NCBI GenBank assembly: GCA_963715755.1
Contig: OY970273.1
Coordinates: forward strand, 667,287-731,286
Direction: 5' to 3'
Origin: an uncultured Planctomycetaceae bacterium
GTDB lineage: Bacteria; Planctomycetota; Planctomycetia; Pirellulales; PALSA-1355
Length of the DNA: 64,000 bases
Shown here: piece by piece, positions 7,802 through 64,000 of the stretch
How positions within the stretch are numbered: the stretch's first letter is position 1
How the letters are laid out: the number at the start of each line of letters is the position of its first letter
The notes under the pieces: generated by a model
Databases searched by the model: none
The model's input: only the letters and a program-made list of their open reading frames with translations
What the model was told of the DNA's origin: nothing
Translations under genes and position numbers: made by a program

Positions 7802-8296
7802 ATGACCGCAGAAGCCAAACCGCTGGTCGGGATCATCATGGGGAGCAAGTCCGACTGGGACACGCTCCGCCACGCCGACGAGATGCTCACCCGGTTCGGC
7901 GTGCCGCACGAGTGCCGGGTGGTTTCGGCCCATCGCACGCCCGATTTGATGCGCGACTACGCCCAGGGCGCCGCCGAGCGCGGATTGGAAGTGATCATCG
8001 CCGGCGCCGGCGGCGCGGCGCATCTGCCGGGCATGGTCGCGGCGCACACGACGCTGCCGGTGCTCGGCGTGCCCGTTGAGTCGCACGCGCTCAAGGGGCT
8101 CGACTCGCTGCTTTCGATCGTACAAATGCCGGGGGGCGTGCCCGTGGCCACGCTGGCCATCGGCAAAGCCGGGGCGACGAACGCGGCGCTCCTGGCCGTC
8201 TCGATCCTGGCCCTGGCCCGGCCGGAGCTGCGCAGCCAGCTGGCCGAGTTCCGCCGCGAGCAAACCCAGCGCGTGCTCGGAGAGACGCTGCCGTGA
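7802..8296 (+). CDS. purE: N5-carboxyaminoimidazole ribonucleotide mutase
   Basis: ORF 7688..8296 with an ATG at 7802. PurE signatures present: [30 protein letters not shown]. Confidence 0.95.
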
Positions 8297-9440: not shown

Positions 9441-9887
9441 TCCTGGACACGATCGCCGGTGCGCCCAAATACCTGGCCATGCATGGGGGCATGGCCGCGG
9501 CCTGCGAATTCCTGGGTCGCAGCGATCTGGGCGAGCTGGCGCCCGGCCGCTACGAGATCGACGGCCCGCGCGTTTTGCGCTTGTCGAGCGGCCCGCGGGC
9601 CGAGGCACGGAGGGCGCCCGGTTGGAAATCCATCGCCGGCACATCGACATTCAAGTCTCGCTCTGCGGCTGCGAAGTGATCGGCTGGCGCCGCTCGACGC
9701 CTGCCGCTCGCCCGACGGCCCTTTCGACGAGTCGCGGGATGTCGGCTTCTTCACCGATCGCCCGGACGTCTGGATGCCGCTCGCCAAGGGGCAGTTCATG
9801 ATGTTCTGGCCGGCCGACGCCCATGCCCCGCTGGCAGGCGCAGGACCGCTGCACAAGGTGGTCGTCAAGCTGCTGGTTGAAGAGTAA
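9437..9887 (+). CDS. YhcH/YjgK/YiaL-family (DUF386) cupin protein, with two apparent frameshifts (~9575 and ~9685)
   Basis: The start overlaps the purK stop (ATGA). The N-terminus [18 protein letters not shown]...RYEIDGPRV is in frame 2. The middle FALVERPAGRGTEGARLEIHRRHIDIQVSLCGCEVIGW is in frame 1 (my own translation). The C-terminus DVGFFTDRPDVWMPLAKGQFMMFWPADAHAP is in ORF 9459..9887. Confidence 0.65.
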
Positions 9888-10068
9888 CGTTCTTCGCCTC
9901 GTTCGGTTCGCGGTGCTGGCGACACTCCAGCACGCTGGCAGCTCGCCAGGCCGCACGCTTCGCTGCGGCTCGCCCAGCGCTCTGGCGGCGCCCCTGGCGA
10001 CGGTCAGAACTGGCTCTCTTCCGGGCCGGCGCTTACAATGGGAGCCTGGCGGAAGGAGACGTGCCCGC

Positions 10069-10717
10069 ATGGCCTCGCTGGTTGACATTTCCGACAAACC
10101 GCCGCTCGCCGTGCGCCCGCCGCAATTCGGCTTGCGGGCGTTGCTGTTGGCCGTCACGCTTTGCGGCGTGCTGTTTGCGATCATGTCCGTGCTGGGCGGA
10201 TTGTGGTCGATCGGGCTGATCCTGCTGCTCGCCCTGATCGCCGCGCACGTGCTGGGCAATGCCCTGGGCACGCAGCTCGCGCGATGCCGCGGGGCAATCG
10301 AGCCGCCCCGCCGCGGCCGAGCGCCCCTACGATGCGGCCCGGCCCCCGGTTCCGCCAGCCCGGCGGCTACAGGAAAAAACTGGCGTCAATCGCCTGCTGC
10401 TCGTCCTGGCGGCCTTGGGAGCAGTGGCCGGTGGCACGGTTGGGGCGGTGGTCCTTGTCGCTGTGCTGGGGGACGACACGAGCGTGGCCGCGCTGGCGCT
10501 GGGAGTCGTGTCGGCAGCCGTGCTGGGCGGATTCTTCGCCTTCCTGCTATCGAGCTTCTGCTTCGTCTTTTCCCGCGCCTTGGGCGAGGCGCTGGGCGAT
10601 CCGGCCGCCGCCGGCGCCCGCGAGCGCCGCTACGCGCTCTCGGCTGGCTGGGCCCGCGGCGAGGAGCCGACGGGTTCGGCCCATCCGCCCCTGTCTGCGG
10701 GCGGGCGAATTCTTTAG
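10069..10717 (+). CDS. Hypothetical multi-pass membrane protein (probable frameshift ~10265-10285)
   Basis: ATG at 10069, preceded by GGAAGGAG. The N-terminal TM helices lie in the frame of ORF 9823..12630. Two more TM helices lie in ORF 10259..10717. No recognisable family. Confidence 0.4.
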
Positions 10718-10797
10718 ACTCGGGGGCGCTTGCCGCGTCGACCCGGTCGGCCGCTCGACATTGCTGCCCGCACCCGCTTGGAAAAAAGGATCCACCG

Positions 10798-12630
10798 ATG
10801 GCCGCCACCGCCACCGCCGAGGAAAAACTGCCGCACTGGGACCTGTCGAACGTGTACTCCGGGCTGGAGGCCGCAGATTACCGGGCTGATTTCGCCCGGC
10901 TGGAAAAATCGCTGTCCGATCTGGAGCGGCGCTTCGACGAGCAGAACGTTCGCCGGTTGCCCGAGTGCCCCGCGGCCGGTTCGCCCGAGGCGGCCAGTCT
11001 GGCCCAGAGCCTGGCCGCGATTCTGGAGGCGGTGAACGAAATGTCGCGGCTGGCGGAAACGCTGGCCGCATTTGTGTACGCTTTCTTCAGCACCGACAGC
11101 TTCAGCGCGGTGGCTGCCCGGGAGATGTCCAAGCTCGATCTGGTCGGCGTGCGCCGCAGTCAGCTGGGTGTCCGGCTACAGGGCTGGATCGGCAGCCTGG
11201 CCCCGCTCTTGGACCGCTGGATTGCCGGCGGGGGCGCCCTGGGCGAGCATGCTTTTTTCCTCCGCGACAGCGCGCGGCGCAGCCGCTATTTGATGACCGA
11301 GGAATTGGAGCACCTGGCGGCCGAGTTGTGCGTCGATGCCGGCGGCGCGTTCGGCAAGCTGCAAGGCACGGTGACCAGCCAGCTGAAGGTTCCGCTGGAG
11401 CGCGACGGCCGCAGCGAGCAAGTGCCGATCACGGTGGTCCGCAACTATGTCTTCGACGCCGACCCGGAGCTGCGCGAGCGAGCCTATCGGGCCGAGCAGG
11501 CCGGCTGGGAGTCGATTCGCAGCACCGTGGCGGCTTGCCTGAACGGCGTCAAAGGCACGGCCCTGACGCTGGCCCGGCGGCGCGGCTGGCCCAGCGTGCT
11601 CGACTGGTCGCTGGATGCCAACCGGATCGACCGGCCCACGCTCGACGCGATGCTGGGAGCCATCCGCGAGGCGTTTCCGATGTTTCGCGGTTATTTGCGC
11701 GCCAAGGCCCGGCGGCTGGGGCTCGAGCAGCTGCGCTGGTGGGACCTGTTCGCTCCGCTGGGCGGCCAGCAGCGGCGGTTCAACTGGACGCAGGCGCGCG
11801 AGTTCATCGTGGAGAAGTTCGGCACGTTCAGCCCCGGGATGGGCGAGTATGCCCAGGCCGCATTCGACGGCCGCTGGATCGACGCCGAGCCCCGCACCGG
11901 CAAGCGCGGCGGAGCGTTTTGCATGGCGGTCGAGGGGGTCGAAGAAAGCCGGATCCTGGCCAACTTCGACGGCAGCTTCGACCAGGTGAGCACGCTGGCT
12001 CACGAGCTGGGGCACGGGTATCACAATCACTGCCAGCGCGGTTTGCCGAACCTGCTCCGCGGAGCGCCGTCGACGCTGGCCGAAACGGCCAGCATCTTCT
12101 GCGAGACGCTGCTGGCCGAAGCCACCCTGGCCGAATCCTCGCCGGCGGAGCAAGTGGCCATCCTCGAGCTGCAGCTCTCCGGCGCGGCGCAGGTTTGCCT
12201 GGACATCAGCTCGCGGTATCTATTCGAGTCGGCCGTTTTCGCGCGCCGCGGAGGAAGCGAGCTGAGCCCCGACGAGCTCTGCCAGCTGATGCTCGACGCC
12301 CAGGGCGAGACGTACGCCGACGCGATCGACCCCCAGACGTATCATCGCTACATGTGGCTGTGGAAGCCGCACTACTACTCCCACGAGCACAACTTCTACA
12401 ACTTTCCCTACGCCTTTGGCCACCTGTTCTCGCTGGGCCTGTATGCCATTTTCCGCAGCGAAGGGGCAAGCTTCGTGCCGCGCTACGATGCCCTGCTCCG
12501 GGCGACCGGACAGGATTACGCGGCGCCGCTGGCGGCCCGCTTCGGCATCGACATCACCCAGGCCGACTTCTGGCGCGGCAGCCTGAAAGTGATCGGCGAG
12601 CAGGCCGAGCGCTCTGCGCGCTTGCCTTGA
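10798..12630 (+). CDS. pepF: Oligoendopeptidase F (M3B metallopeptidase)
   Basis: C-terminal 610 aa of ORF 9823..12630 with an ATG at 10798. It has the HEXXH zinc motif (AHELGHGYH) and M3 family length and layout. Confidence 0.9.
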   Translation: MAATATAEEKLPHWDLSNVYSGLEAADYRADFARLEKSLSDLERRFDEQNVRRLPECPAAGSPEAASLAQSLAAILEAVNEMSRLAETLAAFVYAFFSTDSFSAVAAREMSKLDLVGVRRSQLGVRLQGWIGSLAPLLDRWIAGGGALGEHAFFLRDSARRSRYLMTEELEHLAAELCVDAGGAFGKLQGTVTSQLKVPLERDGRSEQVPITVVRNYVFDADPELRERAYRAEQAGWESIRSTVAACLNGVKGTALTLARRRGWPSVLDWSLDANRIDRPTLDAMLGAIREAFPMFRGYLRAKARRLGLEQLRWWDLFAPLGGQQRRFNWTQAREFIVEKFGTFSPGMGEYAQAAFDGRWIDAEPRTGKRGGAFCMAVEGVEESRILANFDGSFDQVSTLAHELGHGYHNHCQRGLPNLLRGAPSTLAETASIFCETLLAEATLAESSPAEQVAILELQLSGAAQVCLDISSRYLFESAVFARRGGSELSPDELCQLMLDAQGETYADAIDPQTYHRYMWLWKPHYYSHEHNFYNFPYAFGHLFSLGLYAIFRSEGASFVPRYDALLRATGQDYAAPLAARFGIDITQADFWRGSLKVIGEQAERSARLP

Positions 12631-12790
12631 CCGAGTTCGAGTCGGTCTGGGGATAGGGAAACAGGCCCGGCTGATGGCCGCACGTTGCGGGACCAGCCGG
12701 GCCACTGCCCCCCGGTTCCGCACTCCATTGCGCAGAGGCGGTACCTATCTGAACCATAGCGCGGCCGCTGCGGCAGGCAAGCGGCAGCCC

Positions 12791-12847
12791 GCCGGCCGAG
12801 GGAACTTCCGCCGGCCGAGGGAAATCCAGCCGGCCGAGGGGGATTTT
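12791..12847. repeat. Tandem direct repeat, 3 x 19 nt (GCCGGCCGAGGGnAnnTnn)
   Basis: The three units gccggccgagggaacttcc / gccggccgagggaaatcca / gccggccgagggggatttt were read directly. They lie in the convergent intergenic gap between pepF and ybjQ. Confidence 0.8.
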
Positions 12848-13038
12848 GGCGATCCTTTGCCGCCGGGCCCCCTACTCCGCCGGTCCGGCGCGCGTAGAAT
12901 CCCCTCAGGCGGATGGCCGGCTGCAGCGACCGTTCTTGGCTATCGCTCGCCTGAGAACGGCGCGGGCCGGCCAGCTGCTTTCTTTCGCCGCATCTTCAGC
13001 AGATGCGGGCCAAGCGCCAGGGGGCTTTCGCGGCTGCG

Positions 13039-13443
13039 TCAGCCCCGCGGGCGGTACGGCACCACTTCGACCGCCGTGCCATAGGCGAGCACCTCGGTAA
13101 CGCCCTGCATCACTTCGGTGGCGTCGTAGCGTGCGCCGATGACGGCGTTGGCTCCCAGTTGGGCGGCATGTTCGATCATCAGGTTGAACGACTCGTTCCG
13201 CGTCCGCTCGCACAGGCTCGTCAGGATCGTGATGTTCCCCCCGACCAGCGTTTGCAGTGCTGCCCCCAGGTTGCCCACCACCGAACGCGAGCGCACCGTG
13301 ATGCCGCGGACGACGCCCAGGCTGCGCACGATCTGGTAGCCGTCGAGCTCAAAGGCCGTGGTCACCATCTGGTGCGGCACCGTGCCCGGCGGCGGAACCT
13401 CGGCGCCATCCGGAGAATAGGGATGGTTGGGGCTGGCAGTCAT
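13039..13443 (-). CDS. YbjQ-family (UPF0145) protein
   Basis: ORF 13039..13443. It has the typical YbjQ core [29 protein letters not shown]...[12 protein letters not shown]. Confidence 0.85.
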
Positions 13444-13518
13444 GATCGGTTCTCTCGGGGTTGGTGCGATTGGTGCGAGCGTGGCGTCGACGGTAAGCGG
13501 GGGTGCGGGGCGCCGCGA

Positions 13519-14304
13519 TTACGAATCGTCGGCGTCCAAAAGGACCAGCTCATCGCCGACCGACAGGCGGCCGGCGGTGAGCGTTTGCGTGTTGACGGCC
13601 AGCCGATAAAAGTGGTTGAACCGGCTCGCTTCGGCCCAGGCCGGAAGCGTAGCCCGCCGCTCGGCGGCAAAGGTTTTGGAAAAGCCCCAGATCACTTCGC
13701 CGGTCTCGGCATTGCGGGTGGGCACGATGCAGCGCTGGCAGGGATTCGTGCCCCCCAGAGTCGCTCCGCCGATGCGGAATCGGACCAGCGAGCCCTGGGT
13801 GGCGTACAAGCGGTCTTCCCAAAACGGCTCGACGCCGTCGATTTCCAGATTGGCCCGAAACCGCAGTCGGGCATCTTCGAGCGAAACTCCCGGAAACCAG
13901 CCAGCCACGGTCTCGAGCGTCGCCGTGCTGATGAGCGTGGGGCCCGGCGCTTCCAGATCGTCGGGGAATCCCTGGGCGGCATTTTCGTGCACCTCGACGG
14001 GGAAATCGAAATGCCGGCTCAGTCGGGCTTCGAGCTCGAGCCGCTGGCTGTCGATTTGAAATGTTTCCCGCTCCTGTGCGCCGCGCAGGCCGAGCGTCAC
14101 GCTGCGCGTGGCCGGATCGTAGCTGCCGGCCAGCGTGTGGATGACGTGCGTTCGCTTACCGTTGACCACTTCACCTTGCGCATCGCGGAGGCAGAAGCGA
14201 CGATCGTTTTCCAGGCCCGCGTAGGGCAGCAGCGGCGCGCTCTCGAGCCAGAGCGGATCGAGCGACTTGATCGGATAGACGGCGATGCGGGCCAGACGCG
14301 GCAT
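13519..14304 (-). CDS. MOSC domain-containing protein
   Basis: ORF 13519..14304. It has the N-terminal beta-barrel start (IAVYPIKS) and the MOSC conserved cysteine context (GGTNPCQRCIVPT). Confidence 0.85.
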   Translation of the reverse strand: MPRLARIAVYPIKSLDPLWLESAPLLPYAGLENDRRFCLRDAQGEVVNGKRTHVIHTLAGSYDPATRSVTLGLRGAQERETFQIDSQRLELEARLSRHFDFPVEVHENAAQGFPDDLEAPGPTLISTATLETVAGWFPGVSLEDARLRFRANLEIDGVEPFWEDRLYATQGSLVRFRIGGATLGGTNPCQRCIVPTRNAETGEVIWGFSKTFAAERRATLPAWAEASRFNHFYRLAVNTQTLTAGRLSVGDELVLLDADDS

Positions 14305-14855
14305 CAGTTCAGCCTCGGATCCGAGGGCACGTGCTTGATGCCCAGCGCCGCCAGCAGTCCGGAGCCGCTAATCTCTTTGACGAGCGCTTCCCAAGCGCCG
14401 TCGGGGTCGCGAAACACGCGCTGGGGCGTGGCCGCGATCGTGCCCCAGGCGCCTGCGGCCAGCTCCGACTCGAGCTGTCCGGCCCCCCAACCCGAGTAGC
14501 CGATGAAGAATTTTGCCGAGCCGTCGGGCTCGTTGGCCAGCTGTTCGAGTTTTTCTTTTTCCGCGGTGAAGTAGACGCCCGGCGTGGCTTCGATGTCGAC
14601 CAGTTCGGCATTGCCGTGCAGCGCCATGAGCGGGCCCTGGATGGGGCCGCCGACGCGCAGAGCCTCGCGGCTGGCGCAAGGGCCGCTGCTGATCTGGCTC
14701 CAGACTTCGCGCACGCCGGTGCCGGACTGCCGATTCAGGGCCAGGCCGAAGGCCCCTTCCTCGTTGTGCCGCACCAGCAGGACGACCGAATGAAAGAAAT
14801 TCGGATCGAGCAGTTTTTCCGAGGCGATCAACAAACGACCGGCAAGAAAACTCAC
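14304..14855 (-). CDS. YqgE/AlgH-family protein (UPF0301)
   Basis: C-terminal 183 aa of ORF 14304..15170 with a GTG start at 14855. The sequence LLDPNFFHSVVLLVRHNEEGAFGLALN...GGPIQG...FIGYSGWGAGQLE is typical of the family. Its stop overlaps the MOSC start. Confidence 0.8.
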   Translation of the reverse strand: MSFLAGRLLIASEKLLDPNFFHSVVLLVRHNEEGAFGLALNRQSGTGVREVWSQISSGPCASREALRVGGPIQGPLMALHGNAELVDIEATPGVYFTAEKEKLEQLANEPDGSAKFFIGYSGWGAGQLESELAAGAWGTIAATPQRVFRDPDGAWEALVKEISGSGLLAALGIKHVPSDPRLN

Positions 14856-15600
14856 GATCGACCGCTGTGCTGTGCCGAGAAGAAGACAAGAAACCAGAGA
14901 GGCGCCAAACCCGGCGACGAACGACACAAGGTCGCGCGCCCGTCGCGCGCTCCGGAGCCCAAGTTGCAATATACCAAAGCCGGCCCGGGGCCAGTTGCCG
15001 CACGGCGAGCGCGACGGACGCTCGCCGGCCGGTGCGCCAGGGCGGCGGAGCACAGCGCGCCCGGCCGCGAAAAGTGCCGCGATGAGCACACACCGTTTGC
15101 CCTGAACTCCCCTGCCCTGCCCTGTGCCGGGCGAAAACAGCGGCCCTGGGGTCATCCTTGACGACGGCATTCGCTGCCGTCATGGATTGCCGGACTGCCT
15201 GCAGCACATGTCTGTCCGCCTGGCGGGCACTTCCCGATCGTTGATCGGTCTGAATTGCAGTAATATATTTCTCGCAAAGCACTTGCGAGAATCCTCGTGG
15301 TCGCGGCACGGCGTTTGTTTAAGCAATTCCCCGGACAGAACGCAGTGCAGGACAATTCACCCATTCCGCGGGAAGGTGCAAACATGTTAGCCACGGTTCT
15401 TTGGGGGCGTGCGACGGGGCTGGCGATTACGGCTGCTTTGACGGCGGTGCTCGGTGCGGTAACCGCGCAAGGCCGGCCGCCGGGCGGCGCGGCCAAAATG
15501 GGCGCCCGCCGGGCCGGTATGTCTGCGGCGATTCTCCGCTCCGGCACGCTGCGGGCGGACCGCAGTGTGCAGCTCGAAATTCTCTAGCAGGTGCCCGGTC

Positions 15601-16792
15601 ATGGAAGCTCTGGTATTCGAAACGCCGTATCAGTTTGTGCCCCCCTACGAAGGCCGCTTCTGGCCGACGGTGCTGCAGCGGGCGACGCGCTCGTATCTGC
15701 GCTGGCAGTATGGGATCACCGAGTTCGAGTGTCGGGGGCTGGATCGTCTGCGAGCTGCCCGCGCGGCTGGGCACTCGATCTTGCTGGCGCCGAATCATTG
15801 CCGCCCCTGCGACGCGTTCGTGGTGAGTGAGCTCGCGCCGGGCCGGTACGCTTCCCTACGTGATGGGGAGCTGGCACCTGTTCATGCAAGGCCGCTTTCA
15901 GTCCTGGGTGCTGCGCCGGGCCGGCGTGTTCAGCATTTATCGCGAGGGAGTGGATCGCGCCGCGCTCAATGCCGGGATCGAGATTCTCAGTGCCGCGCGG
16001 CGTCCGCTCGTGGTATTTCCCGAAGGAGTCGTCAGCCGGACCAATCATCGCCTCAACCCGTTGATGGAGGGAGTGGCCCTGATGGCCCGGTCGGCCGCCC
16101 GGCGCCGGGCAGCCCAGTCGCCGGCCGGGCAGGTGGTCGTTCTGCCCGTGGCGCTCGACTATTCGTTCCAGGGGGACCTTTCGGGAGCGATCTCTCCCGT
16201 GCTCGACGCCATCGAACGCCGGCTCTCCTGGCGCCTGCAGCGGGAACTGCCGCTGACCGAGCGGGTTCGCAAGCTGGGCGAAGCCCTCTTGGCCCTGAAA
16301 GAGGCCGAGTACCTGGGCCACGCCCAGCCGGGCCCGCTGTTCGAGCGCCTGCAAAACCTGACCCGTCATCTGCTCGAGCCGATCGAGCGCGAGTATCTGC
16401 ACGGCGCGACCGACCCCAGCGTGGTGGCCCAGGTCAAGCGGCTCCGGGCGGCGATTCTGCCCGAAATGATTCACGGCCAGCTGCCCGCGGCCGAGCGCGA
16501 GCGGCGGTGGCGGCAGCTCGCCGATCTGTATCTGGCCCAGCAGTTGTCGTTTTATCCGCCCGATTACCTGGGAACGGGAGCGAATCCGAACCACGTTCTG
16601 GAGAGCGTCGAGCGGCTGGAAGAAGACCTGACCGACTTCAGCCACGTGCATCCGCCGATGAAGGTCACGGCATCGGTGGGCGAGCCGATCTTCGTTAGTG
16701 CCCAGCGCGAGCGCGGCGCCGAGCACGATCCGCTGATGGCCAACCTCGAAGCCCAACTCCGGACCCTGCTGGGGATCGATCATGCCGGTTAA
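15601..16792 (+). CDS. Glycerolipid acyltransferase (PlsC/GPAT-like, long C-terminal extension), with one apparent frameshift ~15838
   Basis: ATG at 15601 within ORF 15565..16698, which carries the H(x)4D motif NHCRPCD. The rest is in ORF 15827..16792, which carries the FPEG block (VVFPEGVVSRT). Confidence 0.8.
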
Positions 16793-17454
16793 TCGCCGAA
16801 CCCTCTGGCTCCGGGCGATCTTGGTAGCGCTGGCCCTGGGCGCTTGGTTTGGGACGCAAGCGCTCCTGGGCAGCCGCACGCCGCGGGGCGAGGGGATCGT
16901 CGACGCGGTGCACATCTGGACGGCGCCTGCGCACGATTACTTGCTGGCGCGTCCCCAATTGGCCGACGGACTGCTGGTCGTCAGTTCAGCAGTGATCGAT
17001 GCCCTGGGGATCTTTCTGCTCGGGCGGTCGATTTTCGGCCGGTCGGTGCGGCCGCTGCTGGCCTTGCTCACGCTGTTCGCACTGCGGCAAGCGTGCCAAG
17101 GGCTCTGCGCTGCCCGTGCCCGAGGGCATGATCTGGCGCTCGCCGGGCGTTCCTTCGCTGCTGGTGACGTATGGCGTGTCGACGGACTTGTTTTTTTCCG
17201 GCCACACGGCGCTGGCGGTGCTGGGGGCGATCGAACTCGGCCGCCTGCAAAAGCCCTGGCTGCGGCGGCTGGGCCTGGCCGCGGCGGTATTCGAGGCCGG
17301 CACGGTCCTGATCTTGCGCGCCCACTGGACGATGGACGTCTTCGCCGGCGCCCTGGCCGCGATTCTGGCCGCCAGTCTGGCCCAGCGCTGGGCCGGGCCG
17401 ATCGACGAGCGGCTGCGGGGCATCGGAGCCGGAGCGCCACGCGCTGCTGCTTGA
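16782..17454 (+). CDS. PAP2_C / sphingomyelin-synthase-like integral membrane protein, with one apparent frameshift ~17109
   Basis: The start overlaps the acyltransferase stop by 11 nt. The N-terminal TM helices are in ORF 16782..17672. The catalytic part is in ORF 16999..17454, with DLFFSGHTA and HWTMDV motifs. Confidence 0.7.
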
Positions 17455-17562
17455 GCCCAGCCCCGGGAAGCAGCAGGCCCTGGAAACACCCGCCCCGGCG
17501 ATCATGCGCCAGCGGCGCGGGCAGCGACTCGTCGGCGCTCGCCGATTCGTGTGCCCCGCGGC

Positions 17563-17600
17563 CAAAAAAAATACCCCCGGGCCGCGTGGGCCCTGGGGGC
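17563..17600 (-). terminator. Rho-independent terminator downstream of the small lipoprotein gene
   Basis: On the minus strand there is a GC stem (gcccccagggccc/gggcccgggggt) followed by attttttttgg. Confidence 0.55.
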
Positions 17601-17631
17601 ATTCTTTGCTGCACTTGCCCGGGAGGCCGGG

Positions 17632-17895
17632 TTACTTGGTTTCTTCTTCGACTTCTGCAGCCCCTTCCTTGACGGCATGGGCAGCTTCGTGAGCCCCCTT
17701 CTTGGTCGCGTCGGCGGCTTCGTGGGCTCCTTCTTTGATCTTTTCTTTTGCTTCTTCGGCCATTTCCTTGCCGGCCTCGGCCGTGTCGTGAGCGGCCTGG
17801 TTCATTTTGTCTTCGGCCTTTTTGACCTGGGGGTTATCGCAGCCCACCCACAGGCCCAGGCTCAAGACCGCCAGCATCGTCAACCACGTTTTCAT
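17632..17895 (-). CDS. Small lipoprotein with repetitive charged helical segment
   Basis: ORF 17632..17961 with an ATG at 17895. It has a signal peptide plus lipobox (MKTWLTMLAVLSLGLWVGC) and repeated E-A-x-H-E-A-A/K-E-G-A segments. Confidence 0.6.
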   Translation of the reverse strand: MKTWLTMLAVLSLGLWVGCDNPQVKKAEDKMNQAAHDTAEAGKEMAEEAKEKIKEGAHEAADATKKGAHEAAHAVKEGAAEVEEETK

Positions 17896-18326
17896 CGCAG
17901 GTTCCTTCGGAAAAAAAGAGCTAAGGATTCCGCCGGCCGAGACCCGGCCCGCCATGAGCAAGAGTCCCGCCGGGGCGGATTTATTCCCGCTTCTTCGGCA
18001 CAGCCTGGCAAGTAACCGGCGCGCGGCGGAACCGCTTGCCGCGGCGCTGCTTGCCGCGTCGCGGACATGCTCCGCGTTTTCGCCGCTGCGACTGCAAGCG
18101 GATCTTCCAGCAATCCACGTGGGATTTCATTAGGTGGACCGAGCGTTTGCGGCAACAATCGCAGGCAGCGCTTCCGCCTCCGGCGTTCGGGAACGCAATC
18201 GCTTTAGATTCCGGGGGGGCCGCCGATTCCTGTCAATGTCGGCCGGACCTGCTGGTTGCCGCGGTGTGCCAATAGACCGCCGGGAGAGTCCGTTGGACGG
18301 TTCACTCGCTCAGCAGGAGACAGTCC

Positions 18327-19740
18327 ATGGATCGTCGTCAATTCATCACGGGCGTGGCCGCGGGCGGGTCGCTCGCCCTGGCGCAGCGGCTTGCGGGCCG
18401 CAGAGACCTGCCCGCGCACGTTCGCCACGCCCGAGGAAGCCCGGCGGTCGGCCCCCGAGAAACTCGCCTATGTCGTCGGCGTCTACGCGGGAACGGGAAT
18501 CCCCAAGCCGGACTATCTGGCGACGATCGATCTCGACCCGGCGTCGCCGACGTATTCGCAGGTCGTGCATCGGCTGGCGATGCCGAACGTGGGCGATGAA
18601 TTGCACCACTTCGGTTGGAATGCCTGCGCCAGTTGCCACGGCGAGCGGGCGCGGAGATACCTGGTCATTCCCGGCCTGGTCTCGGGCCGGATTCATATCG
18701 TCGACACGGCCGATCCCCGCGAACCGAAACTGCTGAAAGTGATCGAGCCGGCCGACGTTGTCGGCAAGACCCGGCTGACCGCCCCGCACACCGTGCACTG
18801 CCTGGCCGACGGGACGATCATGATCTCGATGCTGGGCGATGAGAAACTCGACGGCCCCGGCGGGTTTCTGCTGCTCGACGACAAGTTCGACGTTGCCGGG
18901 CGGTGGGAAACCGGCACCGAGGGCATGCAGTACAACTACGACTTCTGGTATCAGCCCCGGCACAACGTGATGGTCAGCAGCCAGTGGGCCGCGCCCGCCA
19001 CGACGCGCCCAGGCTTCAGGCTCGAGGACGTGAAGGCCGGAAAATACGGCCACCAGCTGCACTTCTGGGATTGGTCGAAACGAAAAATCGCCCAGACCAT
19101 CGACCTGGGCGAGAAAGGAATGATCCCGCTTGAAGTCCGCTTTCATCGCAATCCGGACAGTCCGCACGGCTTTGTCGGAGCCGCCCTGTCCAGCGTGATG
19201 TGGCATTTCTCCAAGGACGGCGAGCGGTGGCAAGCCGAGCCGGTCATCGAGGTCGCAGGCCGCGAGCTGGAGGGTTGGGACTTCCCGGTGCCGGGCTTGA
19301 TCAGCGATCTGGTCGTCTCGATGGACGACCGCTGGCTGTACTTCTCGAATTGGCTGCACGGCGACGTCCGGCAGTACGACATCCGCGATCCGGCGAAACC
19401 AAAGCTCGCGGGCCAGGTCTGGGTCGGCGGATTGCTGGGTAAGGGCCCCCAATTCCGCAACACGCCCGCGCACGGCGGCCCGCAGATGCTGCAACTCAGC
19501 CTCGACGGCAAGCGACTGTACGTCACCGACTCGCTATTCAGCAGCTGGGACAACCAGTTCTATCCGGCCATCGCCAAAGCGGGGTCGTTGATGCGGCAGC
19601 TCGACGCCGATACCCAACAGGGTGGGCTGAAGCTCAACGAGCGGTTCCTGGTCGATTTCGGCCAGGAGCCGGGCGGGCCGGCCCGGGCCCACGAAATGCG
19701 GTTTCCGGGGGGCGACTCCACATCCGACGTGTGGAGTTGA
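18327..19740 (+). CDS. Selenium-binding protein (SBP56) family / methanethiol-oxidase homolog with Tat signal, one apparent frameshift ~18390
   Basis: The twin-arginine leader MDRRQFITGVAAGGSLALA is in ORF 18327..18599. The whole SBP56 body is in ORF 18256..19740 (HHFGWNACASC, GRIHIVD, YNYDFWYQP, LYFSNWLHGDVRQYDI). Confidence 0.85.
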
Positions 19741-21416: not shown

Positions 21417-21420
21417 GCAG

Positions 21421-21503
21421 TACCGAAGGTGGGAGTCGAACCCACACGAGGTTGCCCTCACTGGATTTTGAATCCAGCGCGTCTGCCATTCCGCCACTCC
21501 GGC
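21421..21503 (-). tRNA. tRNA-Leu (anticodon CAA)
   Basis: Manual fold of the reverse complement: GCCGGAG acceptor, anticodon stem-loop CTGGA-TTCAAAA-TCCAG, long variable arm GAGG-GCAA-CCTC, T arm GTGGG-TTCGACT-CCCAC. No CCA is encoded. Confidence 0.9.
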
Positions 21504-57501: not shown

Positions 57502-58848
57502 TCACGCCGATTTATCCAGCGAGTTCGACTGGTTCAGCTTGTTGTAGAGCGTTTTGAGGCTGATGCCGAGCTCTTCGGCCGCCTGGGGCTTGTTGCCGCC
57601 GACGCGCTCCAGAGTCTGATAAATGGCCTGCATTTCCAGTTCGCGGAGCGTGATCGGGCCGGTCGTCTTGAGCGTGGGGCCCTTGATCGCCGGCCGCTCG
57701 AAGCGGCTGGGCAGGTGTTCCAGCGCGATGGGACCCGACTCGCACAGGATCGTGGCGTGTTCGATCACGTTGGCCAGTTCGCGCACGTTGCCGGGCCAGG
57801 GGTGGCGTGCCAGGGCCTCCAGCACCGCCGGGGCAAAGGCTTGCTCGGCCGCGACCGACTTGCCGCGAAACCGCTCCAGCAGGTGGGCGGCCAATTCGGG
57901 AATGTCCTCTTTCCGCTCGCGCAGCGGGGGCAGGTGCACCTCGAACGTGTTGATGCGGAACATCAGGTCTTCGCGAAAATCCCCTTCTTCGACCATCGAT
58001 TGCAGGTTGCGGTGCGTGGCGCAGATCACCCGCACGTCGACGATGAACGATTCGTTCTCGCCCACGCGGCGGATCTCGCCACTTTCCAGAAACCGTAGCA
58101 GCTTGGCCTGCATGGGCTTGGGCAGCTCGCCGATTTCGTCCAGAAACAGGGTGCCGCCGTTGGCCACTTCGAACAGGCCCACGCGGTGCTCGTCGGCCCC
58201 GGTGAAGCTGCCTTTGCGATGTCCGAACAGTTCGCTCTCGATCAGGCTCTCGGGCAGCGCGCCGCAATTGATCGCCACGAAGGGCATCTCGTGCCGCAGG
58301 CTCTGGTCGTGGATCGCCCGGGCGACCAGCTCCTTGCCGGAGCCGGTTTCGCCGAGGATCAAGGCGGTGGAATTGGTCGGCGCGACCTTGGCGATCAGCC
58401 GGGCCACGCGCTGCATGGCCGGGCTGTGGCCGATCAGGCGCGACTTGCCCTCGATCCGTTCGAGCTGATGCTTGACGGCCAGATACTTGTTCGTCAGCTC
58501 GCGCTTGGCCGCCACGCGCTTGAGCAGCGCCTGCAGGTCGACCAGCTTGCAGGGTTTGGTCAGATAGTCGAACGCGCCGTGCCGCAGCGCGGCCACGGCC
58601 GTCTCGATCGACGACTTGCCCGTGAGCACCACGGCCTCGGTTTGCGGCGACAGCTCTTTGGCCCGGGCGATGACCTCGATGCCCGACAGGCCGGGCATGT
58701 CCAGGTCGACCAGGATGCAGTCGTAGCTGTTGCGGGCGAGCGCGGCGGCGGCGGTGGTGCCGTCGGGGCAGACGGTCACTTCATGCCCCATCCGCGGCAG
58801 CTCCAGGCTCATCAGCTCTTGGAGCGACTTTTCGTCGTCGGCGAACAA
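57502..58848 (-). CDS. Sigma-54-dependent response regulator (NtrC family)
   Basis: ORF 57502..58848 (TTG start; a CTG at 58857 would give MKLLFADDE). It has a receiver domain (DLDMPG), an AAA+ domain (GETGSGKE, GSFTGA sigma54-contact variant) and a C-terminal Fis-type HTH. Confidence 0.9.
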   Translation of the reverse strand: MFADDEKSLQELMSLELPRMGHEVTVCPDGTTAAAALARNSYDCILVDLDMPGLSGIEVIARAKELSPQTEAVVLTGKSSIETAVAALRHGAFDYLTKPCKLVDLQALLKRVAAKRELTNKYLAVKHQLERIEGKSRLIGHSPAMQRVARLIAKVAPTNSTALILGETGSGKELVARAIHDQSLRHEMPFVAINCGALPESLIESELFGHRKGSFTGADEHRVGLFEVANGGTLFLDEIGELPKPMQAKLLRFLESGEIRRVGENESFIVDVRVICATHRNLQSMVEEGDFREDLMFRINTFEVHLPPLRERKEDIPELAAHLLERFRGKSVAAEQAFAPAVLEALARHPWPGNVRELANVIEHATILCESGPIALEHLPSRFERPAIKGPTLKTTGPITLRELEMQAIYQTLERVGGNKPQAAEELGISLKTLYNKLNQSNSLDKSA

Positions 58849-58861
58849 CAGTTTCAGGCGG

Positions 58862-60463
58862 TCATGCGGCTTGGTAGCGATGGGCGTGCTCCTTATGCTT
58901 TTCGGCCAGCGGCAGCGTGACGCGGAACTCGGAGCCCTGATCGGGCCCGTCGCTGTGCACGTCGATCCGGCCGTCGTGGTCGGCGATGATGCGGTAGGTG
59001 ATCGAAAGTCCCAGGCCGATGCCCTGCCCGGTGCGCCGGCGGGTGAAGAACGGCTCGAACAGGTGTTCGCGGACCTCGTCGGTCATGCCGCAGCCGTTGT
59101 CGCGAAACACCATTTCGGCGCTCGGGCCCGAGCGCTGCACGTGCACCTGCACGCTGCCGCCGGGGGACAGGCTGTCGAGCGCGTTGGTCAGCAGGTTCAG
59201 GACCACCTGCTTGATTTCCTGTGGATTGACTGCCGCCAGCACCGGCCCGCCGGGGGCAAACTCGATCTGCTTGTCGTGATAACGGTCCAGATGCGCGACC
59301 ATGGCGATCACGCCCTGGACCAGCTCGCTCAGATCGGTGCTCTGGCGCTTCACGTCGCCCATGCGGGAAAAATCCAGCAACCGCTCGGTGATCCCTTTGC
59401 AGCGAAAGGCCTCGTCCTGGATCATGCTCAGGTACGTGCGGACCACCTGCTGCTGCTCGGCGGCCTCGGGCACGTGCGCGAGCAGCTCCTGGATCCGGCC
59501 TTCCAGCGACTCGGCGCACATGGCGATCGACGCCAGCGGATTGTTGATCTCGTGGGCCACGCCGGCCGCCAGGAAACCGACGCTGGCCAGCTGCTCGCTG
59601 CGCACGACTTGCTTGGTGCGCTGCTGGACCTGGCGGTCCAGGTCGTCGCGAATCGCCTGGAACCGGGCCGTCATGTCGTTCAGCGCGTCGGCCAGTTCCG
59701 ACATTTCGTCGTGCGTCGGCAGCCGGATGCGATAGTTGAATTCGCCCGCCGCCACGCGCCGCGAGCCCTCGACCAGCGTGCGCAGCGGCTGGAACACCCA
59801 GGTGTAGAACAGCCGAATGAAGACGGCGAACAGGATCAAGCCGCTGATCGAAGTGACCCAGGTCAGGGTGATCCAGGCCCGATAGCGGGAGCGCACCTGG
59901 TCGATCAGCCCGCGGATGGCCTGATACAAGTGGCTGGGCAGCTCGGCGGCCAGCCGCTGCAGCACTTCGAGCTGTTCGTCGATGGTCTCGACCTTGCGCT
60001 CGTCGTCGAGCCATTCCAGGTTGCGGGTCAGAGCCACGACGTGGGCCAGCACGGCATCGATCTTGTGGGCGGTCTGCCATTCCAGGTGACTGTCGCCGAT
60101 CGTCGGATCGCCCTGATCGTTGCCGCTCAGTTCGTGCTCGTAGTCGGCCATTGTCTTCTGGACGTCTTCCAGCTCGACGTCGAACTGCCGGGCGGTCACC
60201 AGCTTGTCGAGCGTGGCCGGGCCGTCCTCGGCCACTTCGTAGGCGCCGCGAACTTCGCGCAGCGTGATCCGCAGCGCCCCGACCTGCTGGCTGAGCGTGG
60301 CGGCCAGGGGCAGTTCGGCCGCGCGGCCGCTGAGGCTGCGGACCAGATTGCGATAGGCGTAGACGCCGTGGAATCCGCTCCAGCCGAGCGTGCCGACGGT
60401 CACCAGCAGCAAGCTGATGCCGACGAGCAGCTTATTGCGGATGGGCCAGCGGATCAGTTGCAC
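58862..60463 (-). CDS. Sensor histidine kinase (2 TM, HAMP, HisKA, HATPase)
   Basis: ORF 58862..60712. The GTG at 60463 is preceded by GGGAGG. It has a HAMP domain (VFQPLRTLVEGSRRVAAGEF), the H-box AHEINNPL, and N/G boxes (DNGCGM, GIGLGLSI). Confidence 0.85.
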   Translation of the reverse strand: MQLIRWPIRNKLLVGISLLLVTVGTLGWSGFHGVYAYRNLVRSLSGRAAELPLAATLSQQVGALRITLREVRGAYEVAEDGPATLDKLVTARQFDVELEDVQKTMADYEHELSGNDQGDPTIGDSHLEWQTAHKIDAVLAHVVALTRNLEWLDDERKVETIDEQLEVLQRLAAELPSHLYQAIRGLIDQVRSRYRAWITLTWVTSISGLILFAVFIRLFYTWVFQPLRTLVEGSRRVAAGEFNYRIRLPTHDEMSELADALNDMTARFQAIRDDLDRQVQQRTKQVVRSEQLASVGFLAAGVAHEINNPLASIAMCAESLEGRIQELLAHVPEAAEQQQVVRTYLSMIQDEAFRCKGITERLLDFSRMGDVKRQSTDLSELVQGVIAMVAHLDRYHDKQIEFAPGGPVLAAVNPQEIKQVVLNLLTNALDSLSPGGSVQVHVQRSGPSAEMVFRDNGCGMTDEVREHLFEPFFTRRRTGQGIGLGLSITYRIIADHDGRIDVHSDGPDQGSEFRVTLPLAEKHKEHAHRYQAA

Positions 60464-60719
60464 GGGCGACCTCCCTGTCGCAGAGCGTTTGATTCGTTCC
60501 CGGAGCCCGAGTTTTCCACCGCCGCCGCGGCGATGCCGCCGCGCTGCGCAGCCTGACGGGCCTGGCGCGGGGTGTCCTGGCGCTAGGTGGCCAGGCGGTG
60601 CTGGCGTGGTTTGGGGATTCCGGGCCGCGGAGTGTAGCAGGACCGGCCGGAGCGCGGAAGGCAGACCCTTGGGGGGCGGGCGGCCTGCTTGCGGGGGCGG
60701 ATTATCGGGCACGTTCCGG

Positions 60720-60748
60720 TTGAGTCGACCGGCCGGGGTCGCTAGAAT
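60720..60748 (+). promoter_or_regulatory. Sigma-70-like promoter (TTGAGT-N17-TAGAAT) for tRNA-Pro
   Basis: Read directly. The -10 ends 16 nt before the tRNA 5' end. Confidence 0.5.
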
Positions 60749-60764
60749 GCGGAACTTGCCACAT

Positions 60765-60839
60765 CGGGGCGTAGCTCAGCCTGGCTAGAGCGCTGCGTTC
60801 GGGACGCAGAGGTCGCATGTTCAAATCATGTCGCCCCGA
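60765..60839 (+). tRNA. tRNA-Pro (anticodon CGG)
   Basis: Manual fold: acceptor CGGGGCG/CGCCCCG, D arm GCTC/GAGC, anticodon stem-loop CTGCG-TTCGGGA-CGCAG, T arm GCATG-TTCAAAT-CATGT. 75 nt; CCA is not encoded. Confidence 0.93.
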
Positions 60840-61377
60840 CTGATCTTAAAGTCAAATCCCGTCATTGGTTGCGAAGGCGACTGGCGACAGGATTTTGAGC
60901 TTCTACGGCGTGTTCGTGCGTTTTTTCGTCCGCGTGTCTTCGGCGTCAAACCGGATACCGAGAAATTCTCGGGAGACACTGCATTTGCAGTACTACCACG
61001 ACAAGTGCGGCAGCAAGTCCAAATTGGCTGCTTCAAGCTTTGGCGCCAACCATCGTCTCGTCGATCACATACGATCGACCCGCGTTTCCCACTAGTGTCG
61101 TGCCGCGCATTGGCCAAACAGCGGTTCGGGGCGTCGATCGATGCCTGCGGGTTTCCCGCCCGCTAGTCAGCGGCAAACGCGAGATGTAGTCGCGAAACGT
61201 TTTCGTCCACATCGTCAGCGCCAGAAGACTGCGCCGGCGCATTTCATATTGCTTTTTTCTGCGGCGGTCCAGAAAGCGACGACTGACAACGCAATCGGCA
61301 ACTCGGCGCACAGCATCATCATTTGGTCATGGCCTACTACTGCGTCCATTCACTTACGCTAATTAGGTTTCTTAACA

Positions 61378-62553
61378 ATGGAACAGTCGTCACGGCACAC
61401 CAAAGCAATCGTTTCCATTCGCGCGAATCTGCTCGAGCTAGTTGTCATTGCGATCGTAATTGCGCTGGGCGTAAACATACTGGCGGGCATGATCCTGAGC
61501 ACAATGCCAAACCATACGTGGTGGGCAGGACTTGGAGGAGTCGTACTGATTGGCGTAGGTTTGGCTTATCTCGTCGCGCGGGCCGTTCCTCGAGTTAACC
61601 AGTGCTCGAAATTTGAGGGGCTTCTGCCGATCGCCGGGACTGATAATGCGGTAGTGCGGATCGACCGATACGAGTTTGCGGAGAAGATCGAAACGTATAG
61701 ATGCGCCTTGGCCGCAGAAAACAAAGCGCTAGCAAGAGCGTGGGCGGATGGCCCGCTCAACGGAATCGCGATTGGAGGCAACGGGAAGGCGACTAAGCAG
61801 GTATCGGTTGCCATGAAACTGGTAGAGGAGGCGACAGAATATTTCGTATTAAGTAAGCTGTCCCTTCACCTCAATTCGCACTTTGCGAACAACTCGGCGG
61901 TCGACGAGTCCGAAATTGTCACGGTCGGCCGCCGCGAAATTCCAGCTGTGCTGCTGGAGAATCGATTCCTCGAGCTCTTCTCGAAGCCAATGGAGGAGCG
62001 TGAGGCATTTTCTACGTCCAGGCACAAGAGTCCGCCCTTAGGTCGAGTGGTTTTCGCGACCGGTAGTGGTGGATCGATCTTTGACCTGTTCGAGTTAGAA
62101 CTGCCACGTGGTGCAAAAGTAGATAGGATTAATGAGAGGTCAATCGTCGTAAGAACTCATCGATTCTCTCTTAGAATCGATGTTCACTTTGACGGATTCT
62201 TGTCGGTCTTCCCAATTGATTTTGATGAGCGGTATTTAGGGAATGGCGAACGGCGAGTTGATGCCTACAAAATATCCGTTGAACTTAATGTTAAGTTTAA
62301 TCTGTGGTCACTTTTTAGCGCCACCGGTTGGCAGTACTACCAGTGGCTTGATTCATTCGTCGATCAGTTCAGTAAGTCATTCGCGTTTGAAGAATTCTTG
62401 GACGATATCGGGTGGAGCACGGCATTGACAGTGAGTAAGTTGGTGCAGCACGGCCGTCCAGGACGATCCAACGCAGATTCTCGGCTTTCGGTGGATGCAA
62501 AGCCGCCAGAATCGAAAGATACACGTAAAGCTAAAAAACGCCGTCGCGAATAA
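61378..62553 (+). CDS. Hypothetical protein: two N-terminal TM helices + ~300-aa uncharacterised soluble domain + Lys/Arg-rich tail
   Basis: ORF 61378..62553. The TM helices are LLELVVIAIVIALGVNILAGMIL and WWAGLGGVVLIGVGLAYLVARAV. The tail is KDTRKAKKRRRE. No family recognised. Confidence 0.65.
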   Translation: MEQSSRHTKAIVSIRANLLELVVIAIVIALGVNILAGMILSTMPNHTWWAGLGGVVLIGVGLAYLVARAVPRVNQCSKFEGLLPIAGTDNAVVRIDRYEFAEKIETYRCALAAENKALARAWADGPLNGIAIGGNGKATKQVSVAMKLVEEATEYFVLSKLSLHLNSHFANNSAVDESEIVTVGRREIPAVLLENRFLELFSKPMEEREAFSTSRHKSPPLGRVVFATGSGGSIFDLFELELPRGAKVDRINERSIVVRTHRFSLRIDVHFDGFLSVFPIDFDERYLGNGERRVDAYKISVELNVKFNLWSLFSATGWQYYQWLDSFVDQFSKSFAFEEFLDDIGWSTALTVSKLVQHGRPGRSNADSRLSVDAKPPESKDTRKAKKRRRE

Positions 62554-62599
62554 CGTAAAGCACCTTCGACCCGAGGTCTCACAATAATGTGGCAACGCA

Positions 62600-63481
62600 A
62601 TGAGCAGAGAAGATATTTGGGCGGTCACTGGCGTCGGCCTCTATCAATACGATGTGCTTTGCGACTTCACTGACAAAGAAGTACGGGCGTACTGCCAGTC
62701 CATGCGGCAAAAGGCCGCCAGCCTGGCTAAGAGCTGGTCGCAAGACTTGTCGACTGAATGGATATCTCGCAGTTTCCTCGCGGTCAAAATGATCCTTGCT
62801 GCGCAACTCTTGCTAAATGCCGCTTACTACGCCGCCAGAAAGAATCTGTTTGTTACGCAACCGTATTTGATCTACTACGCTTTGCTAAATTCGTGCCGAG
62901 CCGTCCTGTTCACCGATCTACACACTGACTGGAGGCAAGGTAGCTTACGGACAATTAGCCACGACAAAATCAGGACCATGACGGTGTCGTCGTTACGCCG
63001 CTTGTCTCGAACTAAGGCTGAAGAAATCGACTCGTTTATCTTGCGGGCAAAAAAACATAGAGAACTATTGAGCTACAGCTTTCCCGCGACTGGTCTGCGT
63101 GAAATTCGCAAGGACGTCGACATGGACAAGGCTGCTGACGTTGCTGCACTTCTCTGCGAGATCGCGGAGGCGAATAGCGAGTGCTTGGAGTCGGCATGGC
63201 GCAAGCACTCGAATGTTCATTTTGATGTGGCTTGGGAATCACTCGTCGACATTTGCCTTTATGACGGCGAACCAGCGTTTACTGATGACAATGATCTCCA
63301 TCACGCGTCATTCCTCAAGCGTAAGGTAGTTGGTCCCGCGTGCCTTTGCATGATCATGACATTCGGTGCAATCGACGACTTTCAAATAGCGTGGTGTGCT
63401 AATTCGGATTTCAATTCCGAGAACGATGACTTCGATCCTGACCATTTCGAGGCCCCACCGATCTTCCATCCGCTCTGGTGA
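62600..63481 (+). CDS. Hypothetical soluble protein (possible YaaC/HEPN-like helical core, very tentative)
   Basis: ORF 62600..63481, 46 nt downstream of the 2-TM gene. The segment QPYLIYYALLNSCRAVLFTD...TISHDKI is reminiscent of YaaC-like/HEPN-type helices. The C-terminus is acidic. This assignment is not verified. Confidence 0.65.
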   Translation: MSREDIWAVTGVGLYQYDVLCDFTDKEVRAYCQSMRQKAASLAKSWSQDLSTEWISRSFLAVKMILAAQLLLNAAYYAARKNLFVTQPYLIYYALLNSCRAVLFTDLHTDWRQGSLRTISHDKIRTMTVSSLRRLSRTKAEEIDSFILRAKKHRELLSYSFPATGLREIRKDVDMDKAADVAALLCEIAEANSECLESAWRKHSNVHFDVAWESLVDICLYDGEPAFTDDNDLHHASFLKRKVVGPACLCMIMTFGAIDDFQIAWCANSDFNSENDDFDPDHFEAPPIFHPLW

Positions 63482-63678
63482 TGACGGACCTGTTAGGGTT
63501 CTTGGTCAGTGCATTATAGCGCCGAAACTGGAGCCCTCTTGCCTCAATACGGGACGGCTCTTGACCTTTTTGCAAATGGACAGAATCAGTCCAGAATCGT
63601 TGCAAGAGCCTGCAAAAATTGCAGAATCTGGACGGTGGAAGCCCATGTTGTTTCGGGAAATCGTCTTCGAGAGTGATC

Positions 63679-63722
63679 TTCGGGACGCAGAAGTCGCAGC
63701 TTCAAATCCTGTCGCCCCGACT
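63679..63722 (+). repeat. attR-like partial copy of the tRNA-Pro 3' half
   Basis: ttcgggacgcagaAgtcgcaGCttcaaatcCtgtcgccccgact compared with the tRNA sequence ttcgggacgcagaGgtcgcaTGttcaaatcAtgtcgccccgact. Confidence 0.85.
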
Positions 63723-64000
63723 CATTTAACTTCTTTGTCGCCAATCTCTTGCGACGAGCGCGGCCTGGAGGCCGCTGCGTGCCAGGTGGACAGGGTCGTC
63801 CCCAAGGCAAGCTCCCGTAGCGTCTAAGCTCAGCATTTGGTAGATCTCTGGCGCGTCGGCCGCTGCGTTCCATCGGCGCGGATCGCCAGGCGGTGCGGCA
63901 CGCCGGCGCGAGCGATTCCACGGATTTCCCAGGCCAGCTTTACAAGGCCAGCTTTCAAGGGTCACTGCGAAATGAGCATTCGATTGTCACGATCGGCAAA

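Follow-up and report, generated by a model that had tools for sequence, protein, structure and literature searches.

A small islet in a planctomycete tRNA-Pro(CGG) gene, probably the remnant of a decayed element akin to cis-mobilizable elements, carries two independent uncharacterised genes

A regenerated tRNA gene together with a displaced fragment of it is the defining signature of tRNA islands, and is used for mapping them (PMC4383910). The anticodon loop is quoted there as a sublocation of tyrosine integrases (Williams 2002, as cited in PMC4383910), and islands of the Islander collection must hold an integrase gene (PMC4383910). Cis-mobilizable elements (CIMEs) have kept their attachment (att) sites and lost the genes for integration and transfer; they are mobilised by accretion with related elements, and were defined mostly in Firmicutes, via a known parent integrative and conjugative element (ICE) or integrative and mobilizable element (IME) and demonstrated accretion-mobilisation (PMC6323972). 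Here we describe an islet of 2.9 kb lying in the tRNA-Pro(CGG) gene of an uncultured Planctomycetaceae bacterium. The window, that is the whole stretch of DNA that was analysed, comprises 64,000 nucleotides (nt) of contig OY970273.1 (assembly GCA_963715755.1, positions 667,287 to 731,286), and all coordinates below refer to it. The islet contains two open reading frames on the + strand, ORF1 (61378-62553, 391 residues) and ORF2 (62600-63481, 293 residues). We conclude that the segment 60842-63722 is probably what remains of a small integrative element of CIME-like type that has decayed, and that its two accessory genes are independent of each other.

The tRNA-Pro(CGG) gene was located on the + strand at 60765-60840 by ARAGORN and recognised by Rfam (RF00005, 62.1 bits), downstream of a promoter-like site at 60720-60748. 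In this intact gene the 5' part is the native one; the 3' part, which begins at the anticodon loop, presumably came with the inserted element. The original prediction had described a 44-nt repeat starting in this anticodon loop, and analysis of the locus bore this out. The proximal, attL-like copy (60798-60841) runs from the anticodon loop (TTCGGGA) through the 3' end of the tRNA plus one nucleotide. The distal, attR-like copy (63679-63722) lies on the same, + strand and is identical to the proximal one at 40 of the 44 positions. When the two halves of the repeat were searched for separately, the number of matches expected by chance was 0 for each (100 shuffles). Neither ARAGORN nor Rfam found a tRNA 5' half ahead of the distal repeat, which is therefore a displaced 3' fragment of the native tRNA-Pro and not a second gene. 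The first 13 nt of the repeat, TTCGGGACGCAGA, are identical in both copies, and this core is the likely region of crossover.

The DNA enclosed by the repeats is also set apart by its base composition. As had been proposed, the G+C content is lower there: it is 0.516 for 60842-63678, as compared with 0.661 ± 0.018 for same-size stretches elsewhere in the window, the lowest of which has 0.603. The islet is thus 8 standard deviations (SD) under the window mean. The G+C content of third codon positions (GC3) is 0.55 for ORF1 and 0.60 for ORF2, vs 0.86 and 0.88 in the two genes upstream. Since an intact tRNA accompanied by a 40/44 direct copy of its 3' part from the anticodon loop exceeds chance, and since both G+C and GC3 break from the flanks, the predicted site-specific integration into tRNA-Pro(CGG), in its 3' half, is supported.

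The opposite interpretation would be that nothing was inserted, the distal 44-mer being a chance match or a local duplication of a tRNA fragment and the low-G+C genes being ancestral. It draws on the fact that the insertion was read from the single allele of the window, and we consider it extremely unlikely. The repeat is far beyond chance and, like att duplications, begins exactly in the anticodon loop and extends to the 3' end of the tRNA (PMC4383910); the copies show a compensatory difference in the T-stem; and the compositional break, with GC3 about 0.3 below the flanking genes, argues in the same direction. Furthermore, the same att type occurs with a relative of ORF2 in Dechloromonas (locus L047, see below).

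The mismatches between the two copies were read on the tRNA cloverleaf. In the variable loop, the distal copy shows the change G45A relative to the proximal one. In the T-stem, the 52:62 pair is G-C in the distal fragment and U-A in the live tRNA, which is a compensatory double change. Finally, the distal copy has a C at position 53, breaking the G53-C61 pair. The distal-type 3' end gave 17 exact matches in viral contigs, 11 of them in whole tRNA-Pro genes and 6 in fragments, and all 17 carry G53; the proximal-type att sequence gave 0 matches in viral contigs. The distal copy is therefore a tRNA-Pro 3' end of canonical type in which a single decay mutation (G53C) has occurred, and the proximal copy is a different yet functional version. 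The four mismatches agree with an origin of the two tRNA halves from separate sources, both halves having once been functional. Such a pattern is expected if an element supplies its own tRNA 3' half and the native half is displaced, the principle on which tRNA islands are mapped (PMC4383910).

With respect to mobility genes, the islet had been predicted to be devoid of an integrase in the left non-coding arm (60842-61377; 536 nt, G+C 0.543), and our searches agree. Only short ORFs were present in this arm and around the right end of the islet, and those scanned (in the left arm, all of 44 residues or more) were without a Pfam match, so that no integrase remnant was recognised in either arm; moreover, 536 nt are too short for an integrase gene. 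The left arm as a whole had no match in Pfam or Rfam. The right non-coding arm (63482-63678) has a G+C content of 0.497. Scans of the islet ORFs against Pfam, NCBIfam, PADLOC and PHROGs yielded no integrase, excisionase, relaxase or transfer gene, and a crude motif and BLAST search for a recombinase signature among the ORFs of the window was negative. Apart from the tRNA, no RNA family was found in the islet by Rfam. DNA similarity was absent between the non-coding arms and the fetched loci or the rest of the window, and a promoter and terminator scan was uninformative.

Two further tRNA-like pieces were observed in the left arm. A direct partial copy of the T-loop, TCAAATCCCGTC, lies at 60852-60863, just inside the left end of the islet, and an inverted copy resembling the T-arm and acceptor stem lies at 60883-60906, where 20 of 24 positions are complementary to 63693-63716 in the distal repeat. 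These copies could be recombinase-binding sites or the debris of an earlier integration.

When compared with islands of the Islander type, the locus presents the same combination of an intact tRNA, foreign DNA with a compositional break, and a direct displaced 3' fragment starting at the anticodon loop. As for tRNA islands, tRNA-Pro 3' ends of the distal type also occur as fragments in prophage-like contigs. The islet differs from the Islander type by the lack of a tyrosine integrase gene, and with its 2.9 kb it falls far below the usual size of tRNA islands; those found here to hold relatives of ORF1 or ORF2 measure 7-16 kb. Like CIMEs, the islet has attL/attR-like repeats with an identical 13-nt core, contains cargo only, and is without integrase, excisionase, relaxase and transfer genes. 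Unlike for CIMEs, no parent element or partner integrase was found for it, and its two att sites now differ from each other at 4 of 44 positions. As an object the islet is of an ordinary kind, an integrative element that has decayed within a tRNA gene, and provides a clean example from a high-G+C genome of at least 7 Mb, in which the tRNA halves still show their separate origins.

The following course of events would account for the locus. A tyrosine integrase would have inserted the element at the anticodon loop of tRNA-Pro(CGG), with the crossover within TTCGGGACGCAGA. The copy of the tRNA 3' half brought by the element would now complete the live tRNA-Pro gene, and the native 3' half would have been pushed 2.9 kb downstream, where its decay would have begun (G53C). 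The mobility genes may have been lost or may never have been present, the att sites being kept, and movement would be possible only with an integrase supplied from elsewhere. An unoccupied allele is expected to consist of the tRNA with a distal-type T-arm (GCAGG/CCTGT) followed directly by CATTTAACTTCTTTGTCGCC. As for the cargo, mobile elements would have acquired the ORF1 and ORF2 families one at a time.

Another origin for the missing integrase was considered, in which the 2.9-kb unit would be the tRNA-proximal member of a tandem array or composite island, with an integrase able to act on its att sites just past the end of the window; it would then be open to mobilisation in cis by accretion and not be immobilised debris. 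The window stops 278 nt after the distal repeat, and the G+C content of these 278 nt is 0.612, not fully back to the window mean of 0.661. In addition, tandem islands with repeated tRNA fragments exist at other loci with an ORF2 relative (for example L039), and accretion with related elements is a known route of CIME mobilisation (PMC6323972). Against this, the available 278 nt contain no additional tRNA-Pro fragment and no visible recombinase, and the crude search detected no recombinase signature elsewhere in the window. We therefore regard such an array as rather improbable, and retain a single decayed CIME-like element as the more probable explanation.

The genes carried by the islet had been described as two co-directional genes 46 nt apart, encoding 391 and 293 residues, which was confirmed. 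They had further been proposed to form a two-gene cassette, a candidate novel system in which the membrane protein ORF1 and the cytosolic protein ORF2 would act as one two-component defence or abortive-infection system. Several features of the locus speak for such a system: there is no terminator-like site between the genes, both are foreign by composition, both families are unannotated, and both are found near defence genes elsewhere. The surveys of the two families gave a different answer. ORF2 relatives were examined at genomic loci (the genome scan profile was a 21-sequence subset of the 108-sequence family alignment), and ORF1 relatives at metagenomic loci. An ORF of the ORF1 family was present at 0 of 61 ORF2-family loci, 53 of which have at least 1.2 kb upstream; conversely, an ORF of the ORF2 family was present at 0 of 64 ORF1-family loci, 38 of which have at least 0.9 kb downstream. 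Not a single co-occurrence was thus seen in 125 loci, and the closest relatives of each gene (49-53% identity) were unpaired as well.

Each family is typically solitary. Clustering of all ORFs within 4 kb revealed no conserved neighbour of either one. An upstream neighbour with at least two transmembrane (TM) segments was found for 2 of 61 ORF2 relatives, vs 101 of 920 in the background, and ORF2 relatives thus show no excess of membrane-protein partners of any family. Because co-conservation is absent, the reading of the two genes as one system is contradicted and has become very unlikely; ORF1 and ORF2 are two independent accessory genes. The tidy two-gene layout of the islet, from which a system had been predicted, was overturned by the co-occurrence test.

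The only other place where both genes were found together is contig L001, which holds the same islet at 99.9% identity (window 60811-63761) and may not be an independent source. It shows three differences, at 61238, 61591 and 61706. The C>T change at 61591 converts codon 72 of ORF1 from CGA to TGA, and the 1-nt deletion at 61706 shifts the ORF1 frame; ORF2 is identical to that of the window. Both substitutions fall in palindromic hexamers (GCCGGC and CTCGAG) and the deletion falls in a CC run. The differences in ORF1 represent either a real pseudogene allele or sequencing artefacts. A disrupted ORF1 beside an intact ORF2 would be at odds with a pair acting together, but since sequencing artefacts may be at the origin of these differences, counter-selection of ORF1 was not relied on.

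Neither protein could be placed in a named family by searches of Pfam, NCBIfam, PADLOC and PHROGs, as the original prediction had stated, and PADLOC-DB v2 contained no family at E <= 1 for ORF1 or ORF2. ORF2 at first seemed to be a near-orphan, as a word-index search gave 4 relatives. Upon exhaustive profile search, 337 cluster representatives were obtained; the apparent orphan status was due to limited search sensitivity. The uncharacterised ORF2 family thus counts at least 337 representatives, spread across many phyla. In the genome scan, relatives were found in Planctomycetia, Firmicutes, Bacteroidota, Alpha-, Beta- and Gammaproteobacteria, Acidobacteriota and other groups. One of the closest (52% identity) is in L008, a metagenome-assembled genome (MAG) of Planctomycetia.

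The 108-sequence alignment of the family displayed about 20 near-invariant polar or aromatic positions, among them R57, K63, N82, Y89, Y92, Y93, R100 and H121 in the first half of ORF2, and R154, E155, S158, Y159, D229, D232, R235 and D260 in the second half. The protein had been predicted to be soluble and helical with an acidic C-terminus, and all three properties were recovered. ORF2 has no TM segment; its AlphaFold2 model, built from only 5 sequences, is all-helical (predicted local distance difference test (pLDDT) 65, predicted TM-score (pTM) 0.71); and its tail has 7 D/E in the last 30 residues. The acidic C-terminus is a trait of the whole family, with a median net charge of -6 over the last 30 residues. 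The C-terminal end of the family (window 63400-63478 in ORF2) terminates in a recurring F-x-P-D...I-F motif, and the pLDDT of the model is below 50 in this region. Rather than being folded with the rest of the protein, the tail has the look of a short docking motif.

When the model of ORF2 was compared with the PDB by Foldseek, the top match was the HEPN-domain protein 4nqf (probability 0.96, E 0.29, for a model of pLDDT 65), with TM-scores of 0.30 on the query and 0.51-0.54 on the target. With HEPN-domain proteins, including single-gene abortive-infection ones, ORF2 has in common that it is all-helical and that its gene is solitary in mobile or defence contexts; to go by the match to 4nqf, a four-helix HEPN fold may be present. 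In contrast to HEPN proteins, the family lacks the Rx4-6H motif: in the 108-sequence alignment there is no conserved Arg 4-6 residues before H121, and no conserved His follows any of the conserved Arg (R57, R100, R154 and R235). HEPN-type profiles of Pfam were not matched by any member either: ORF2 itself hit no Pfam family at E < 0.07, and no Pfam family was common to the 108 members (E <= 0.01). A profile search of the PDB gave nothing relevant, and no solved structure was found by sequence. Taken together, these features tentatively suggest that ORF2 may act on its own as a conflict-system protein, a helical enzyme or sensor of HEPN-like fold whose active site would be non-canonical.

A similarity of ORF2 to YaaC-like proteins (PF14175) was discarded, as it reached 12.9 bits vs a cut-off of 27 (E 0.072), covered residues 41-105 only, and was matched by no other member of the family at E <= 0.01. 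A literature search on YaaC and HEPN returned author-name matches only. The only fusion seen is P0194 (798 residues), in which the ORF2 domain occupies residues 527-797. The N-terminal 526 residues of this protein had no Pfam match and no relatives among the sequences searched; by eye, a signature of the PD-(D/E)xK-like type ('D...LLIEAK') can be discerned in them, so that the partner domain may be a nuclease.

The genomic settings of the ORF2 relatives are in part those of tRNA islands. Repeat-bounded islands were recognised at L018 (tRNA-Arg, 11.5 kb), L039 (tRNA-Thr) and L063 (tRNA-Arg, 15.8 kb), and in L031, L053 and L062 the relative comes straight after a tRNA gene. In Dechloromonas sp. 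UBA6271 (L047, 1006-5783; gene identities assigned by eye from translations), the ORF2 relative is followed by an HD-domain gene and a gene for a 775-residue Ser/Thr kinase with TPR repeats, and the island ends with an AlpA-like excisionase gene and a displaced piece of tRNA-Pro(CGG), covering its 3' side from the anticodon loop onwards, which is the att type of the window. A second tRNA-Pro island was suspected in Azonexus (L048) and rejected: tRNA-Pro(CGG) is 8 kb upstream, but housekeeping cbb genes lie between, which leaves L047 as the true parallel. At L039 (Acetobacterium paludosum, 2109-19292), the 3' end of tRNA-Thr recurs twice in succession after the gene (46/46 and 44/46 identical). 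These copies delimit a tandem pair of islands, about 6.9 and 10.2 kb long, and the second island opens with the ORF2 relative.

Other relatives of ORF2 have defence-type or mobile neighbours. One is in a Bacteroidetes conjugative transposon and adjoins SIR2_2, DUF87 (HerA-like) and SbcCD genes; another adjoins an RVT_1 and SLATT_5 pair (retron-like), a relaxase gene and MobC (the SIR2_2/HerA-like and RVT_1/SLATT_5 neighbourhoods are those of loci L138 and L140). A further one adjoins an integrase gene, a Macro-domain gene and a transposase gene. AAA_21, PtuA/AriA-like ATPases, PD-T4-6 kinases and methyltransferases are also among the neighbours, and one relative sits amid ordinary genes. In an alphaproteobacterial MAG (L030, 17771-18315, - strand), a second copy of the family was observed about 7 kb from an intact one; it is split over two adjacent frames and is probably a pseudogene.

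The ORF1 family is likewise uncharacterised and comprises at least 143 clusters at E <= 0.001. ORF1 had been described as a protein with two TM segments and a basic tail. The first part of this description holds for the family, as hydrophobic segments of ORF1 lie at about residues 10-44 and 48-73, two such segments are found in 69 of 85 members, and the TM hairpin is conserved; the basic tail is present in ORF1 (C-terminus KAKKRRRE) and is not conserved across the family. Conserved polar residues of the hairpin are R15, E20, N33, G54 and Y64. The predicted cytoplasmic α/β domain, of about 290 residues, contains the conserved motif NRFLELFSKPMEER. The AlphaFold2 model of ORF1 (pLDDT 88.6, pTM 0.84) shows two long N-terminal helices forming the TM hairpin, followed by the α/β domain. 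No convincing match of this fold was found by Foldseek in the PDB or BFVD; the best PDB values (E 0.12, TM-score <= 0.30) belonged to scattered START/Bet v1-like matches. Searches of solved structures with the single sequence and with the profile found nothing. One relative, P0017, is labelled DUF3137 in its source; this label was not adopted, as 0 of 85 members, P0017 included, match the Pfam model (E <= 0.01), and the literature was uninformative.

Effectors of the SLATT and Cap15 types, which have two TM helices, are the nearest described proteins by layout. ORF1 resembles them by its N-terminal two-helix hairpin followed by a cytoplasmic domain, and by the presence of its family in some defence or toxin-antitoxin neighbourhoods. 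Unlike these effectors, ORF1 is solitary, with no adjoining signal-generating enzyme and no conserved nucleotide-signal or reverse-transcriptase partner; it has no Pfam or PADLOC match, and its α/β domain has no structural match. The only protein feature in common is a generic 2-TM N-terminus. ORF1 could, on a cautious estimate, be anchored in the membrane and have a cytoplasmic α/β domain that uses the conserved, polar-residue-bearing hairpin for control or sensing. Such an architecture would suit an abortive-infection or exclusion effector.

Relatives of ORF1 were found in two tRNA islands (L084 and L094). Others adjoin PIN, HipA and ParE toxin genes, an AAA_15/21 and HNH pair, or Shedu genes, Lamassu-like genes and integrase genes. 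Neither family was found in sequenced phage genomes. On plasmids there was no ORF1 relative, and ORF2 relatives were present on 3 megaplasmids; a few prophage-like viral contigs hold relatives. In the survey suggested by the original prediction, the genes do not travel together; defence-type neighbours are present for both families, and many other neighbours are housekeeping genes.

These surroundings are compatible with a defence role for each gene, which is plausible by association, and on the same ground the likeliest role for each is a conflict-related one in the wider sense, be it defence, exclusion or the maintenance of the element. We somewhat hesitantly consider that one or both families could be new stand-alone conflict genes, directed against phages or mobile elements, that islands acquire individually. 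The ORF1 family would then be a new fold of membrane-anchored, self-contained sensor-effector, and the ORF2 family would consist of HEPN-like enzymes that have diverged and use a non-canonical active site (R57, R100, H121, R154, E155).

Alternatively, the cargo genes might serve the mobile element (anti-defence, establishment or maintenance) and not the defence of the host. ORF2 relatives are found inside conjugative or mobilisable elements, where they adjoin transfer and ParB-like genes, and the conserved acidic C-terminal tail of this family would agree with such a function, as would the distribution of both families, nearly absent from phage genomes and plasmids and present on integrated elements. 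Yet for many relatives no mobile element can be recognised around the gene, Pfam and PHROGs revealed no resemblance to established anti-restriction or anti-defence families, and both ORFs are intact in the islet though the mobility genes are gone. We judge service to the element unlikely as the function of this cargo.

Some observations weigh against the conclusion that the islet is a decayed CIME-like element with two independent genes, or against the roles suggested for these genes. The insertion was read from the single allele of the window, and the 278 nt past the distal repeat leave room for the integrase of an adjacent element. Since ORF1 and ORF2 point the same way and the 46 nt separating them hold no terminator, the two may share a transcript in the islet, and could still interact in this one case. 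Many ORF1 relatives lie amid ordinary genes; the defence role is argued from association, taken without a background comparison. Finally, the HEPN-like match of ORF2 is weak (E 0.29, pLDDT 65) for a family without the Rx4-6H motif.

The remaining interest of the locus lies in its cargo. Two sizeable families absent from Pfam, NCBIfam, PHROGs and PADLOC are patchily spread on mobile elements, and one of them, the ORF1 family, has a confidently predicted structure without a match in the PDB or BFVD. Both are reasonable and cheap candidates for single-gene defence screens.

Outside the islet, the region directly upstream of the tRNA (57502-60712, - strand) encodes a 616-residue sensor histidine kinase-like ORF and a 448-residue response regulator-like ORF, the latter with a sigma-54 activator-type ATPase motif (GETGSGKE); both were identified by eye from their translations. 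A second tRNA gene of the window, tRNA-Leu(CAA), is located at 21420-21503 on the - strand.

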